Part shown: in pieces, positions 21,452 through 59,202 of the stretch
Position numbering within the stretch: the first letter of the stretch is position 1
Layout: each line of letters begins with the position of its first letter
IMG/VR virus record: IMGVR_UViG_3300025072_000003
DNA length: 64,000 nucleotides
Strand: one strand, 5' to 3'
From: an uncultured virus (IMG/VR IMGVR_UViG_3300025072_000003)
Taxonomy: Duplodnaviria; Heunggongvirae; Uroviricota; Caudoviricetes
Notes under the pieces: generated by a model
The model's input: only the letters and a program-made list of their open reading frames with translations
Database searches by the model: none
What the model was told of the DNA's origin: nothing
Made by a program: the position numbers and the translations under genes

Positions 21452-22060
21452 TCAATATTCTTTGAGAAAATGCTTACAAATCTGTTTCCCACGACGATCT
21501 ATCTTCTTCCACTTGCTTTTAAAATTTATGGATTCAATTCCACCAAACATAATCGCATTGGAGTGAAGTTCAGAGATAGAAGCCAGCACAAGTGTAAACG
21601 CATCCTTTTTGGTCCACACATTTTCACAATAATACCCAACTTCATCGGCGCTGGCTGTGTGAATCAACATATCCCAGCCAATTAAATTTGCAACCTTTAT
21701 CTTATCACATCTATCAGATATAGCAAGATATGTCTTTTTTGACACATTGGCGTGATCTGGAAAGTGGGATCTACCATCTTCATCCACAACATGACAAAAA
21801 GGCTTTCCACAATCGTGAAATATTAAGTATTCATTAACTAAGTCTTTTGAATGAGAATCATTAATCAATTGTTTGCCATATTCTTTAAGCCATTTTGGAA
21901 TGCGCCATTCACAATGAGAATGACCCTCTTCTATTAGCTGCACAAGATCCTTGTAATAACTTGCAACTGATTGACCATGCAAATACACAGATTGGTTCTT
22001 AGTCTGCTTACATCTAAGCATCTCTCTGATAACTTCATCTTTGTTCTAGGTAAATCCCAT
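21452..22060 (-). CDS. HD-domain phosphohydrolase with in-frame TAG at codon 5 (22046-22048)
   Basis: H...FHDCGKP...HFPDH...DMLIH motifs; ATG 22060 overlaps the upstream TAA; reads ATG GGA TTT ACC TAG AAC in frame with ORF 21452-22021. Confidence 0.7.
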
Positions 22061-22720: not shown

Positions 22721-22758
22721 AAAAAAGTGCGATCCTGGGATTCGAACTTAGGACCGCA
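22721..22758 (-). terminator. terminator-like hairpin with tRNA T-loop-like loop
   Basis: TGCGGTCCT-AAGTTCGAATCCC-AGGATCGCA then TTTTTT. Confidence 0.6.
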
Positions 22759-22762
22759 TAAA

Positions 22763-23101
22763 TCAACATCCTTTCAATAATTGATACTTTTTAAAATATC
22801 TGCGCACAGAATTAGCCGCCACAGGTTCGGTGGCTAACGAAGTTAGCTCATCGCCTATGTCGGGTTCGGTGAATTCACAGAATTTGATACCAACGGTTTT
22901 TAAATACGAGCACACATTTTTAAGTGCTTTTTCCGTCTTTATACCGAAGACAATTACAGAAGGGTGTTCTTCTTCAACACCGCCAAGAAAGGCTTTGCAT
23001 GCCTCTATGGAAGCATGACAGGACTGTACGACCTGTTGAGGCACGCTTAGATCGCGCCTGATGAAAACGTAAACATAACTGTGGTTCTACGTGTGTGGCA
23101 T
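22763..23101 (-). CDS. peptidyl-tRNA hydrolase 2 (Pth2)-like protein with in-frame TAG at codon 5 (23087-23089)
   Basis: AGAGG RBS, ATG CCA CAC ACG TAG AAC then YVYVFIRRDLS-PQQVVQSCHA...FTEPDIGDELTSLATEP; Pth2-like motifs. Confidence 0.75.
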
Positions 23102-23137
23102 TTTTCTTTTCCTCTTAGTTAAAAAGTCTTACACTAT

Positions 23138-23166
23138 ATTGTAGTTTGAAAATGCAAGATTGTCAA
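23138..23166 (-). promoter_or_regulatory. promoter TTGACA-N17-TACAAT for the Pth2-like gene
   Basis: near-consensus, 37 bp upstream of ATG 23101. Confidence 0.75.
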
Positions 23167-24590: not shown

Positions 24591-24611
24591 TGTTTCTATC
24601 CTTAAATTTAG

Positions 24612-24683
24612 CGGGCCTAGTGGGAATCGAACCCACATTGGACGTTTTAGAAACGCCTACTTTGCCAATTAAGTTATAAGCCC
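24612..24683 (-). tRNA. tRNA with CUA anticodon (amber suppressor)
   Basis: acceptor GGGCTTA/TAGGCCC, D arm ACTT/AAGT with GG loop, anticodon stem GGCGT/ACGTC with loop TT-CTA-AA, T arm GTGGG-TTCGATT-CCCAC, discriminator G, CCA not encoded. Confidence 0.9.
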
Positions 24684-33096: not shown

Positions 33097-33750
33097 TTAT
33101 ACTTCATTTTGACCCAATTGTAAACCATTTACAATAATTTGTTCATTCATCCAAAATTTACTAGTTTGCACATGGTCTTTTCTAACCATCTTCGCCACAG
33201 AATCGCTAAACTCGTCGTAAGGAAAGGAATTTGCCAGCCTAACCACGTACCCTTCTTGTTTCCCGCCAAACACAGATTCTCCCGTATAGCAATTCATCAC
33301 TTCTTTTTCGTCCCACAGACCCCTATACAGTGTTGGCGCTACTTCCAGATTGATTGAATTGCAAAAATCTACAGTTTCATCCCAAGACAGGCAGGTATTG
33401 TTTTCGTCATATGTTCCAAAAACATAAAAATAACTCGACAATCTTGAATAATGAATTGAATGCTTTGCGTAAACATTTTCTCCACAAACTCGCCATCCAT
33501 CGGGTATTGCATGTTCAATTGAACCGTGAATTCCCTTTACGAAATTTCGTGATGGGTGGTTTCTCGAATTCAATGAACGAGCATGATAATGACCGTTATA
33601 CATGCTCGAATTTTCTCCATCCAACTTTTCAGTTACTACAACCTCTTTGTTTTCAAAAACATTAATCGTTGGAAGTTTTTTGTCATCGGTGGTAACATGC
33701 TCGGACCATGGCAAATGAAGCGTTCTTGGATATTTGTGAAGATTCATCAT
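33097..33750 (-). CDS. RNA ligase family protein
   Basis: KYPRTLHLPWS, TEKLDGEN, CGENVYAKHSI, EGYVVR, AKMVR. Confidence 0.85.
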   Translation of the reverse strand: MMNLHKYPRTLHLPWSEHVTTDDKKLPTINVFENKEVVVTEKLDGENSSMYNGHYHARSLNSRNHPSRNFVKGIHGSIEHAIPDGWRVCGENVYAKHSIHYSRLSSYFYVFGTYDENNTCLSWDETVDFCNSINLEVAPTLYRGLWDEKEVMNCYTGESVFGGKQEGYVVRLANSFPYDEFSDSVAKMVRKDHVQTSKFWMNEQIIVNGLQLGQNEV

Positions 33751-34118
33751 CTAGCCTTAACTACACTTCCTGGCAAGCTGGATTTTATGCCTTCCACCAA
33801 AAGCAACTCTGGCAAAACTTTCATTTTAACTGACTTAATTTTCTTCCTCTTCTTTTTCATGTTTGCAACTCTAACCTCAGCTTCACGGATGATGTGATCC
33901 TCCATGGTCTTTGGGTTTTTCTTTAGTTGACCATTTGCAGAATCTTTAACTTTCTGTTGTCGCAATCGCCTTCGCTCTTTTTTTGACAATCCAACAAATT
34001 GCGTAATATCAGAATCTCTATCATCCTGTTTTTGCCTATTGCTTTGCTTGTCTTGCTTTTGCTGCTGCTGTTTAAGACGATTTCCTCTTTTCCTACTTCT
34101 TCCTTTTTTTCTTCCCAT
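33747..34118 (-). CDS. highly basic hypothetical protein
   Basis: K/R/Q-rich, coupled. Confidence 0.55.
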   Translation of the reverse strand: MGRKKGRSRKRGNRLKQQQQKQDKQSNRQKQDDRDSDITQFVGLSKKERRRLRQQKVKDSANGQLKKNPKTMEDHIIREAEVRVANMKKKRKKIKSVKMKVLPELLLVEGIKSSLPGSVVKAR

Positions 34119-34921
34119 TATTCTTCCTCTTCCTTATTTTCTAATATCGGGAACACTTCCACAATATCTTTGTATATTGAAGTCCAAGGACAATACGTAG
34201 CTTTGTATCCGCACTCTCTCAGAGAAGCCTCCATAGCCTTTCCCGCTGGATAGTTCAGTGAATGAACTACAATTTCATCAATTTTTGGTTTGTTGTCAAC
34301 AATCCAACGCACAACTTCACTTCCCGTATTCTTGTTTTTGGAGTCTACGTACACCTCTCCACCTAAATCATGATCCAAGAAAACCATATGCCACAATTCT
34401 TTAGTGCCAAGTGCTTCGATGCACTCTTCGGCAGTTTCAGCATATTTGCAATAAGGAACTTGACTTATAAACTTCTTTGTCCTGTTCATATCGTCATCTA
34501 AAAATAATACTTCCATCAAACCAACCTCGTATCTTCTTGGCAATTTAAAATTATAATTAGGCATTAGCTCAGCGACAAACCTTTTTCTAGCAACAGGATA
34601 ATTATCGAATTCACTAAATGCCTCAAGCAAAAGTCCGCTAAGGACAATTCCCATACTGTTGCATTTCATTTTAACAGATTTAACTGTTTCCTTTGACAGT
34701 TCTTCAATCGTGTCTATCCCAGCATCAGACAATTGATTGTAAATTCTCTCGGTAAGACCGATAGTTTCTGTCATTGTATATCTGTCTTCAAAAATATCAG
34801 TTTCGCTTCTTTTTGTGGAAATCACAAAAAACAACAATGGCTGAATTTCTGATACCATCCACCCTTCTTTTACCGCTAATTGAAAAACTTTTGATCCGCG
34901 AGTATTTTCTTTGAACATCAA
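34118..34921 (-). CDS. protein with C-terminal cyclic-phosphate-processing receiver domain
   Basis: LFLDDD..R, FLDHDLG, TGSEVVRW, IVVHSLN motifs. Confidence 0.7.
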   Translation of the reverse strand: MMFKENTRGSKVFQLAVKEGWMVSEIQPLLFFVISTKRSETDIFEDRYTMTETIGLTERIYNQLSDAGIDTIEELSKETVKSVKMKCNSMGIVLSGLLLEAFSEFDNYPVARKRFVAELMPNYNFKLPRRYEVGLMEVLFLDDDMNRTKKFISQVPYCKYAETAEECIEALGTKELWHMVFLDHDLGGEVYVDSKNKNTGSEVVRWIVDNKPKIDEIVVHSLNYPAGKAMEASLRECGYKATYCPWTSIYKDIVEVFPILENKEEEE

Positions 34922-55239: not shown

Positions 55240-55884
55240 CTAAAAGCTATAATTTTTATGAGGCTTGCGACAACGAATGCACCAACTACATTCATATTCC
55301 TTTTTGCCCATATTATCAATTTTTGAATTAATGTTCTTCAACACAATGCCTTCAATTTCATTCAAATGAAGAAACCTTTTGTATTCATCTTCTATGCAAT
55401 CGTTAGAGAAGGATTGAGCCAACCAAATATTTTCAGTGACACTCAAAGCGATTCCATGCTTCGGCTCAAGATCAACTGGATTCCCGCAAATGTCATTTAG
55501 CATTTGCATTCTTTCGGTGTATGTTGGTCCATTGATCAGATATTTTCCAACGGTCAAAACATCAAAAAGAATGATCCTATTTTTGTAATGTGGATCATCA
55601 GTTTTGTTATGCATTACTTCGCTATCAAAAACATACTCTACCCCAGATTCTAGATTCAAAGACAAAATCTGATCTTCGATTCCCACACGTCCACGGCTTG
55701 GAATCCACTGCTTGTGAGACTCTGTGTGACGTGTAAAGAATTCAATCTTTCCATTTGGAAGAACATGAGTTACATTTCGTGTTCCATTAAACTTCCTCTG
55801 ACCAGCCCAATAACTCTTAGATGAGTACCTGGGTAATCTACGGGGCAAAATGGACGATACTGGGCGTGGTGGATAGAGTTTCAT
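55240..55884 (-). CDS. ATP-dependent DNA ligase-like adenylation domain
   Basis: QRKFNGTR, FDSEV, LFDVL, EGIVLK motifs; no OB domain. Confidence 0.75.
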   Translation of the reverse strand: MKLYPPRPVSSILPRRLPRYSSKSYWAGQRKFNGTRNVTHVLPNGKIEFFTRHTESHKQWIPSRGRVGIEDQILSLNLESGVEYVFDSEVMHNKTDDPHYKNRIILFDVLTVGKYLINGPTYTERMQMLNDICGNPVDLEPKHGIALSVTENIWLAQSFSNDCIEDEYKRFLHLNEIEGIVLKNINSKIDNMGKKEYECSWCIRCRKPHKNYSF

Positions 55885-58716: not shown

Positions 58717-59202
58717 TTAATTAGGAACCTCTGTAATCAATCCCTTTACAGTCAAAGCAGAAACTCCAACATCACTTAGTGGATGCCAATTCTCTATTTG
58801 ATTGCTGTGGAATGGCTTTCCTCCATTGTCGAAATCAACCGCCAATGTAATGTGCTGGATCTTGTTGATGGTGTTTACTCCTTTGGCATCAACAGCTATG
58901 GCAGCAACTTTTTCTCCTACCCCTAAATGCGTTGCTTTCATATCTGCAACACTTCCTAAAGAAGCTGGTTCATTAAGGTTTGGATTCATCGGACCTAAAT
59001 TAATGGTCATGTGATGAGCAATAACTTTCCACTTTTCCGCCTCTGGCTTAATACGATTCAACGCTGGAATCACATTTGATAAAAGAAGAGTTCTAGACGC
59101 TTCATCTAAAACTACAGCCGTGTAAGAAATTGACTTTTTTGGCTCGCCTGGATCTCCAGGGGCATTGCCATCCATACTTTCTACAAAATCATTAAATTTC
59201 AT
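58717..59202 (-). CDS. 2H phosphoesterase (tRNA-ligase CPDase-like)
   Basis: two Hx(T/S) motifs HHMTI and HITL; GGKPFHSNQIENW. Confidence 0.7.
   Translation of the reverse strand: MKFNDFVESMDGNAPGDPGEPKKSISYTAVVLDEASRTLLLSNVIPALNRIKPEAEKWKVIAHHMTINLGPMNPNLNEPASLGSVADMKATHLGVGEKVAAIAVDAKGVNTINKIQHITLAVDFDNGGKPFHSNQIENWHPLSDVGVSALTVKGLITEVPN

Follow-up and report, generated by a model that had tools for sequence, protein, structure and literature searches.

The stretch of DNA analysed here (64,000 nucleotides, hereafter the window) comes from the uncultured Caudoviricetes virus recorded as IMGVR_UViG_3300025072_000003 and carries on its minus strand, at 22763..23101, a gene resembling peptidyl-tRNA hydrolases of the Pth2 type, whose reading frame is interrupted by a TAG codon directly after a four-codon leader. 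The window covers 64 kb, the whole genome measuring 164 kb or more (the gene product on record lies on a contig of 163,853 bases), and is phage-like, with nearly all genes on one strand, among them genes for ClpX, a sigma-70 family protein, PRPP synthetase, CsrA, PspA, RNA ligases and an ADP-ribosylglycohydrolase. Read on the minus strand, the ATG at 23101-23099 is followed by CCA CAC ACG, the TAG at 23089-23087 and a frame that stays open up to the TGA at 22765-22763, without further stops or frameshifts, giving the translation MPHT*NHSYVYVFIRRDLSV.... The codons after the TAG are AAC CAC AGT TAT GTT TAC GTT TTC ATC AGG CGC GAT CTA AGC, followed by GTG 23044-23042, and the codon reading bears out the statement of the initial annotation that the frame from the TAG to this GTG is free of ATG, GTG and TTG. 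The purine-rich ribosome-binding site and the TTGACA/TACAAT promoter, which were claimed for ATG 23101, are likewise present (Table 1), the promoter as a consensus match in a region whose total count in a promoter scan is not above that of its shuffles. Contigs from four out of four other marine metagenome runs, belonging to four studies, are letter-identical across this gate, and hence the TAG is not an assembly error; the second gate described below was covered and identical in three of these four runs.

Reading through the TAG as X yields a product that matches the Pfam profile PTH2 (PF01981) with 28.1 bits at a cut-off of 23 bits, aligning residues 10-109 to profile positions 3-115 of 115, whereas the 93-aa form started at GTG 23044 scores 22.7 bits, below the cut-off, and aligns from profile position 19 to 115. 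Thus, the alignment extends upstream of 23044, which is the check that had been proposed for this gene. The 107-residue product that follows the TAG was modelled with AlphaFold (m438c8412b522; pLDDT 91.3, pTM 0.85); its residues 3-10 (SYVYVFIR) form strand 1, in agreement with the earlier placement of a first strand motif YVYVFIRRDLS in the TAG-GTG stretch, and the twelve top-ranking chains in a Foldseek search are all Pth2 or Pth2-like (entries 2zv3, 3erj, 1q7s, 1wn2, 1rlk and 1xty; TMq 0.64-0.81, E-values 3e-6 to 1.5e-4). The protein is hence confidently modelled with the Pth2 alpha/beta fold. A start at GTG 23044 would remove strand 1 together with the nearly invariant R10, D12 and L13, and since the GTG form lacks this core strand and these residues, the stretch between TAG and GTG is structurally needed. 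The Q-x-x-H-A motif is retained, with Q21 and H24 invariant in the family alignment. Alignments of hidden Markov models to 24bt_A and 2zv3_A place the nearly invariant Gln17 (P-Q-Q) at the Lys of the GK-x-x-AQ motif and the invariant Glu74 (E-P-D) at the Asp of the D-A-G motif; this Lys and this Asp are reportedly catalytic in Pth2, from work on S. solfataricus. The best PHROG for the window protein, phrog_34073, is a 77-position profile which covers residues 40-106 only and appears to have been built from truncated gene calls.

A second gene with the same arrangement lies downstream of the Pth2-like gene. The window was scanned for short leaders in which an ATG is succeeded within 10 codons by a stop, with the frame beyond it open for 70 codons or more, and a Shine-Dalgarno-like motif was found in only two of the ten TAG rows, namely those of the Pth2-like gene and of a leader at 22060-22046, whose ATG overlaps the TAA of the preceding gene (TAATG). 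The protein encoded after this leader TAG has the HD motif, and H77, D78, H98, D125 and H129 are invariant in the alignment of its family. No match to Pfam HD (PF01966) was obtained for the window protein, and two homologues reached 17.6 and 16 bits against a cut-off of 22. In profile comparison residues 260-344 of 3wfp/3wfo match the protein with an E-value of 0.0018, and in a structure search the top 10 chains are all from 3wfo-3wfs (TMq 0.51-0.60), with generic HD proteins appearing only at E-values of 0.1 or above. By these comparisons, the modelled HD-like protein appears to resemble the body of class II tRNA nucleotidyltransferases (CCA- and A-adding enzymes). The invariant Met9 of this protein falls on an internal ATG at 22021. 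The model has a pLDDT of 97.2, and residues 2-11, whose upstream part precedes Met9, lie within helix 1; it is because 5-12 residues upstream of Met9 are conserved, with high model confidence there, that this gene is regarded as gated as well.

Table 1. Gated genes, suppressor tRNA and accompanying signals in the window
Feature	Position	Strand	Basis
Phage amber-suppressor tRNA, anticodon CUA	24611..24683	-	ARAGORN (label tRNA-Pyl, cta); Rfam RF00005
Sigma-70-like promoter TTGACA-17 nt-TACAAT, upstream of the leader	23138..23166	-	Consensus match only, 11 of 12 positions
Shine-Dalgarno-like AAGAGG	23111..23116	-	Sequence, 9 nt before ATG 23101; ribosome-binding site score 5
Leader mini-ORF (open reading frame) ATG CCA CAC ACG (MPHT) and gate TAG (23089-23087)	23087..23101	-	Sequence; next base A
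Pth2-like domain, 107 codons after the TAG, and TGA stop	22763..23086	-	Pfam, model, Foldseek, conservation
Hairpin GCGGTCC/GGATCGC and T-run, terminator-like, 3' of the Pth2-like gene	22721..22757	-	Read from the sequence
Second leader mini-ORF ATG GGA TTT ACC (MGFT) and TAG (22048-22046)	22046..22060	-	Sequence
HD-motif protein, 197 codons after the TAG, 0.7 kb downstream of the Pth2-like gene	21452..22045	-	phrog_14850, E 8e-54

The suppressor tRNA of Table 1 is the only tRNA called by ARAGORN in the window and is situated 1.5 kb upstream of the gated Pth2-like gene, in the same orientation. Rfam RF00005 matches it at 24612-24683, scoring 62 bits where the gathering score is 29 (E 3.5e-12). 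At the same time, TAG is an ordinary terminator in the window and the Pth2-like gene is an exception, because 20 of the 112 ORFs in a simple minus-strand call (about 18%) end in TAG, the Pfam domains finishing at such TAG codons are complete (RmlC-like at 2-166 of 168, Prs up to 183 of 184 and PspA up to 215 of 220) and the coding density is unchanged, with an ORF coverage of 0.90 under the standard code and with TAG as sense alike. Most of the 65 loci with relatives of the gene, introduced below, also gain no coding density with TAG as sense, in a test for which differences between codes are within noise, TGA-as-sense and TAA-as-sense controls rise as much, and all that is indicated is the lack of any sign of global recoding at the local level. 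Accordingly, the share of fragmented genes by which alternatively coded phages are recognized is not reached within the 64 kb, and the other hallmark of such phages, a phage-encoded suppressor tRNA cognate to the in-frame stop, is present (anticodon CUA, 62 bits).

The arrangement of a short leader, an in-frame stop and a coding sequence without its own start recurs among relatives of the Pth2-like gene. An alignment-based scan of viral contigs identified 246 such relatives, of which the best 80 loci, many of them on contigs of 100-530 kb, were examined and, with the window, reduced to 65 non-redundant genes at 90% identity. Genes were taken as gated when no ATG, GTG or TTG is found from the nearest upstream in-frame stop to 7 residues before the R of R-x-D-L. 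This applies to 47 of the 65 genes, window included, with TAG as the gate in 40, TGA in 5 and TAA in 2, and an ATG is located 2-10 codons before the stop in 45 of these 47. The leader comprises two codons in 23 gated genes, three in 8 and four in 5 (2-4 codons in 36/47), and longer leaders in L001 and L019 hold two TAGs each. The remaining 18 genes have a usable start, some of them being fusions or having a leader-like ORF followed by a later ATG (L003, L011, L043). Gate-type stops number at most 6 in the approximately 98-codon bodies of the 47 gated genes, as compared to at least one per gene in the leader; extra TAGs inside the Pth2-like gene occur in L005, L008, L015, L066 and L076. The base 3' of the gate is A in 29 genes, G in 15, C in 3 and T in none. 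Since purines occupy codon position 1 of the same genes in 58% of cases, the purine excess at the gate has a binomial p = 6e-8, a value which overstates independence as the gated lineages are related, and the window's 20 true TAG terminators are followed by A in 6, T in 7, G in 6 and C in 1. In the classical literature, a purine 3' of the stop favours suppression. With the window protein as query, 41 of 43 candidate homologues were confirmed, and the closest of them (P0003, P0005 and P0007, with 64-66% identity) have ordinary sense N-termini such as MKPDTQNNHSYVYVF. A scan of viral contigs with the single protein gave 21 pattern matches, none of which was confirmed, as against the 246 relatives of the alignment-based scan, and none of 50,697 phage records was matched by Megablast with the 5 kb surrounding the gene.

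The HD-like family shows the same design. From 144 HD-like relatives in viral contigs the best 80 were examined, corresponding to 67 non-redundant loci, and 46 of these have a leader stop (TAG in 44, TGA in 2) that precedes the invariant Met by 5-16 codons and has an ATG no more than 10 codons upstream of it. The other 21 loci consist of 1 ambiguous case, 14 without such a stop, several of which are C-terminal parts of fusions, and 6 in which an ordinary start comes after a plain stop. The two HD-like genes gated by TGA have tca tRNAs in their records. The HD-like gene adjoins the Pth2-like gene in L008, L009 and L054/L058 and in the cultured phages GAP32, CBB, fHe-Yen9-04, ME3 and Arash, the two are fused in XacN1 and L003, and both domain orders occur in P0151 and P0155. 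An HD-like profile search run without a positive control matched none of five large records that hold a gated Pth2-like gene.

The type of stop in the gate follows the nearby suppressor tRNA's anticodon. Within loci of 10 kb, gate and anticodon agree in every case in which a suppressor is found (TAG with cta in 33/33, TGA with tca in 5/5 and TAA with tta in 1/1), and seven TAG-gated loci and one TAA-gated locus are without a suppressor inside the 10 kb. For this TAA-gated locus (L022) a tta tRNA was tested as a prediction and was found 5.3 kb upstream, just outside the locus. In four of the TAG-gated loci (L004, L006, L015 and L020, from records 62-100% complete) a cta tRNA is present elsewhere in the record, and a pattern search for cta tRNAs gave none in the other three (L010, L014 and L060), whose records are 5%, 39% and 6% complete; nor was one found by this search in the ungated L036. 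With the rest of the record included, the totals come to 37/40 for TAG and cta, 5/5 for TGA and tca and 2/2 for TAA and tta, and hence there are no mismatches of gate and anticodon among the gated Pth2-like genes, the three without a match being from fragmentary records. Of the 204 tRNAs in the loci, 63 are suppressors, and 62 of these 63 are on the strand of the gene. Among the 61 loci with at least one tRNA, 46 have a suppressor as the tRNA nearest to the gene. Assignment of isotype by nearest neighbour, comparing 64 unique suppressors with 154 other tRNAs, did not single out one identity but gave many (Leu 17, Arg 8, Asn 5, Thr 5 and others), and no shared acceptor signature was found in an alignment of the suppressor tRNAs.

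The tRNA sets of these loci contain some further unusual members. Ochre-suppressor (TTA) tRNAs are encoded on two unrelated huge-phage contigs (L075 5306-5380 and L088 1471-1543), each together with a Pth2-like gene whose gate is TAA. In a phage tRNA array (L004 2378-2451), ARAGORN calls a tRNA whose anticodon has four bases (tttt) and which is possibly of the frameshift-suppressor type. Short tRNAs of 75-81 nt with the anticodon CAA occur near suppressors (L032 3665-3740, L035 982-1056, L088 1310-1390 and L188 1486-1563) and are without the long variable arm that is usual in bacterial tRNA-Leu. In L027 (3737-4076) and L028 (3107-3446), a phage-encoded tmRNA with the tag peptide VANDNDIVDFALAA immediately precedes a tRNA-cta and a Pth2-like gene that has no gate.

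The gate is also carried by phages in culture. The protein was found by tblastn in 37 GenBank phage records, of which seven were inspected. GAP32 reads MAQ-TAG-NEKTWIYVFVRTDLP with a cta tRNA 2.8 kb downstream (annotated as Sup-tRNA), CBB reads MAQ-TAG with a cta tRNA 3.7 kb downstream, ME3 reads MT-TAG with a cta tRNA approximately 0.4 kb upstream, and the Salmonella phage Arash reads ML-TAG with a cta tRNA 1.3 kb downstream, the coding sequence (CDS) being annotated in truncated form in each of the four. In fHe-Yen9-04 (MSH-TAG), the gene is unannotated and no cta tRNA is present in the stretch inspected. XacN1 has ATG AAG TAG before ORF364, the HD-like and Pth2-like fusion, which is annotated from an ATG 5 codons past the TAG, and carries two tRNA-CUA genes in its terminal repeats. 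RaK2 has an ordinary start, a full CDS and no gate, with no cta tRNA within 6 kb. The HD-like genes of GAP32, CBB and fHe-Yen9-04 have a TAG inside the HD-like domain, about 47 codons in, and are annotated as fragments. In these records, the local annotation consists of dense standard-code CDS. Pectobacterium phage CBB additionally encodes a separate ordinary PTH2, CBB_392 (L084 1-279), 6 kb upstream of the gated CBB_406, and the presence of both in one phage indicates that the gated family is a distinct, divergent paralogue. The tRNA of Arash (L087 7310-7384) is labelled tRNA-Phe in the record and has the anticodon cta according to ARAGORN, which is either an annotation slip or a hint at the identity of the suppressor.

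With these observations, it is very likely that translation of the Pth2-like gene is gated by the phage's own suppressor tRNA and that the gene is intact but locked. The programmed decoding of the TAG, suggested in the initial annotation, is thereby strongly supported, and the phage-encoded CUA tRNA, which was absent from that account, comes in as its agent. Ribosomes starting at ATG 23101 would synthesize Met-Pro-His-Thr and reach the UAG, which would be decoded by the CUA suppressor tRNA (24683-24611) to give the full Pth2-fold protein of about 112 residues, and without such decoding translation would terminate after four residues. Synthesis of the protein would hence need both the strong promoter and an active, charged suppressor tRNA, an arrangement that would act as a translational AND gate or as a feed-forward delay. 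The HD-like partner would be under the same lock (MGFT-UAG) and is probably also made only with charged suppressor tRNA.

Among the other explanations, general reassignment of the stop fares best but is improbable; TAG would then be sense in all genes, or in late genes beyond the window, and the TAG at codon 5 would be one recoded codon among many, with no particular role in gating. A suppressor tRNA is indeed present, in-gene TAGs beyond the gate occur in the five relatives mentioned above, the window covers 64 kb of the genome, and published recoded phages keep their early regions compatible with the standard code (preprint 10.1101/2021.08.26.457843). However, reassignment is difficult to reconcile with the 20 of 112 window ORFs that terminate at TAG with complete Pfam domains, with the lack of a density gain from TAG as sense in the window and in most of the 65 loci, with the concentration of gate-type stops in the first 2-10 codons (at most six in 47 gene bodies) and with the occurrence of the gate in cultured phages annotated under the standard code.

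Still less probable is termination at the TAG followed by reinitiation or a non-canonical start that involves no suppressor, either at GTG 23044 or at the codon directly after the stop, frequently ATT, ATA or GTT. ATT, ATA and ATC are rare bacterial start codons, and one of these three follows the stop in 16 of the 47 gated genes, behind a leader that is very short. In the window, however, the next codon is AAC, and 31 of the 47 post-stop codons are not starts under any reading, while the GTG form is without strand 1. Moreover, reinitiation would be indifferent to the identity of the stop, yet the stop type tracks the suppressor anticodon, and neither the double-TAG leaders of L001 and L019 nor the TAG that GAP32, CBB and fHe-Yen9-04 have some 47 codons inside their HD-like gene can represent restarts.

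That the gene is a pseudogene, arisen by a CAG-to-TAG or similar nonsense mutation with the GTG ORF as a remnant, is very improbable. According to the initial annotation, orthologues with a sense codon together with other signs of decay in this copy would have spoken for it; the first part holds true, since the closest homologues (64-66% identity) have a sense codon in the N-terminal extension, and gene callers moreover report the 93-aa form only (P0001), but the window copy shows no decay. All invariant and nearly invariant residues are kept, other stops or frameshifts are absent, the allele is identical in the four independent samples, and the same supposed defect is found in 47 of 65 diverged relatives at the same place with a matching suppressor anticodon. 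Leaky readthrough by near-cognate host tRNAs, as in the A1 protein of Q-beta, which would give a fixed low yield of full-length protein irrespective of the phage suppressor, is equally hard to credit, since the purine 3' of the stop in 44/47 genes, which also favours near-cognate readthrough, fits it but the linkage to the suppressor (nearest in 46/61 loci, same strand in 62/63) and the covariation over all three stops are left unexplained.

Several observations nevertheless weigh against control of the Pth2-like and HD-like genes by the suppressor tRNA. As about 18% of the window genes end in TAG, an efficient suppressor would be costly, and in the part of the genome beyond the 64 kb heavy TAG use in late genes is possible. 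The sense N-termini of P0003, P0005 and P0007, as judged from the sequences, make the gate dispensable and evolutionarily labile. Fifteen of the 18 ungated genes still lie beside a cta tRNA; the link between protein and suppressor is therefore wider than the gate, and gating alone is an insufficient explanation of it. For the HD-like protein, the invariant Met9 could serve as an alternative start, and in L126 the HD-like gene has a leader TAG and an internal TAG, although the sole suppressor among the 37 tRNA matches of this 97%-complete record (G013) is tca, making it either a genuine exception or a dead copy. Finally, with Gln17 and Glu74 in place of the Lys and Asp of the motifs, hydrolase activity of the Pth2-like protein is not assured on present sequence comparisons.

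As regards the purpose of suppressor-controlled synthesis, the Pth2 fold and the HD-motif body resembling one that binds the tRNA acceptor both point to the acylated 3' end of tRNA, and the pair may act on this end of acylated or peptidyl-tRNA. The favoured, though only tentatively held, role would be to tie the output of a tRNA-recycling pair to the level of suppression, so that peptidyl-tRNA and by-products of stalled translation which suppression creates are cleared and tRNA trapped as peptidyl-tRNA under perturbed termination is recycled. The main alternative is a negative-feedback loop on the suppressor itself, an option with some appeal given that TAG still terminates 18% of the phage's genes, and a role in counter-defence at tRNA 3' ends is a third option. 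More speculatively, and rather doubtful at present, the suppressor tRNAs of large standard-code phages might chiefly operate this module as a closed loop that measures and sets readthrough via tRNA 3' ends, works with all three stops and was the ancestral controller from which full phage recoding arose.

Suppressor-dependent expression as such has precedents in phages with alternative codes. In the crAss-like, Lak and other gut phages of this kind, in-frame stops have been proposed to withhold translation until the suppressor is made (preprint 10.1101/2021.08.26.457843), and the window shares with them a phage-encoded suppressor tRNA for in-frame TAG or TGA. According to the same preprint, 26-71% of the genes of such phages have in-frame stops, mostly structural and lysis genes, whereas the window otherwise follows the standard code, its stop lies in a leader which measures 2-10 codons across the family, one module is concerned, and the design extends to TAA with tta. 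The preprint does not mention "hydrolase" or "Pth". We know of no reported reassignment of ochre (TAA) in phages.

Among large phages with the standard code, PTH2 is known from jumbo phages (Iyer et al. 2021, PMC7824862), in a paper which reports neither a gate nor a connection with suppressor tRNAs and in which the word "suppressor" does not occur; the gated family is a paralogue divergent from it. In XacN1 (PMC5852040) and Summit (PMC9022506), a tRNA-CUA is encoded, the genome is not recoded and, as their authors report, target genes could not be identified. The readthrough considered by the XacN1 authors concerns 18 amber codons at gene ends, whereas ORF364 is a candidate target with the codon at the gene start. 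These orphan suppressor tRNAs thus gain a concrete candidate target, and the stop-gate design recurring in big phages may explain their suppressor tRNAs. An engineered counterpart is the synthetic feed-forward "leak dampener" (PMC7969014), in which an amber codon is combined with a co-regulated suppressor tRNA so that expression needs both; the phage gate differs in being natural, conserved and tied to tRNA-end enzymes.

Two other systems are comparable in part. In prfB, the gene for the translation factor RF2, a stop placed early in the frame responds to the balance of termination and decoding, with escape by +1 frameshift; the early in-frame stop is the common feature, with frameshifting in prfB and proposed suppression here. 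The bar minigenes of lambda are ORFs of 2-3 codons whose peptidyl-tRNA drop-off burdens Pth, and the likeness to these is one of architecture only, with leaders of 2-4 codons in 36/47 genes and in the window four codons with an AAGAGG start signal. The feedback loop put forward in the initial annotation, in which an MPHT minigene would generate the peptidyl-tRNA that the product removes, is likewise matched in architecture only, by the size of the leaders.

In a literature search that left subscription journals and supplements outside, no paper was found which joins the Pth2 or HD-like gene with suppressor tRNAs. Suppressor-dependent expression in recoded phages, PTH2 in jumbo phages and orphan suppressor tRNAs as a puzzle were already known; new is a stop gate positioned in the leader of a tRNA-end enzyme module, matched codon for anticodon with all three stops, in phages whose genes otherwise follow the standard code. 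Such a gate would connect quality-control enzymes of the tRNA end with the control of stop-codon decoding and may show how phages tolerate or tune suppression while about one-fifth of their genes end in the suppressed codon. As a natural translational AND gate, it offers interchangeable codon and anticodon pairs for all three stops as parts for genetic-code engineering, and several carrier phages are in culture. The family is moreover mis-annotated, the gene being truncated or absent in GenBank records of cultured phages.

Some other features of the window are worth recording. Downstream of the Pth2-like gene, the 15-nt loop of the hairpin in Table 1 holds the tRNA T-loop-like GTTCGAATCC; a terminator scan left this hairpin uncalled (loop above 8 nt), ARAGORN and Rfam gave no tRNA call there, and from its sequence it may be either a terminator or a decayed tRNA 3' half. 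Three pairs of ORFs on the minus strand are in the same frame and are split by one TAG and 3-7 codons, namely Prs and a 171-aa ORF (49284-47731), a 141-aa ORF and the sigma-70-like gene (38593-37532), and ORFs of 199 aa and 175 aa (6228-5092), and these could yield readthrough fusions with the suppressor present. Beside the suppressor module, the window also contains a set of RNA-repair-type genes on the minus strand (58717-59202, 55240-55884, 34118-34921 and 33097-33750), which comprises a cyclic phosphodiesterase-like protein, two RNA/DNA-ligase-like proteins and a cyclic-phosphate-processing receiver domain.

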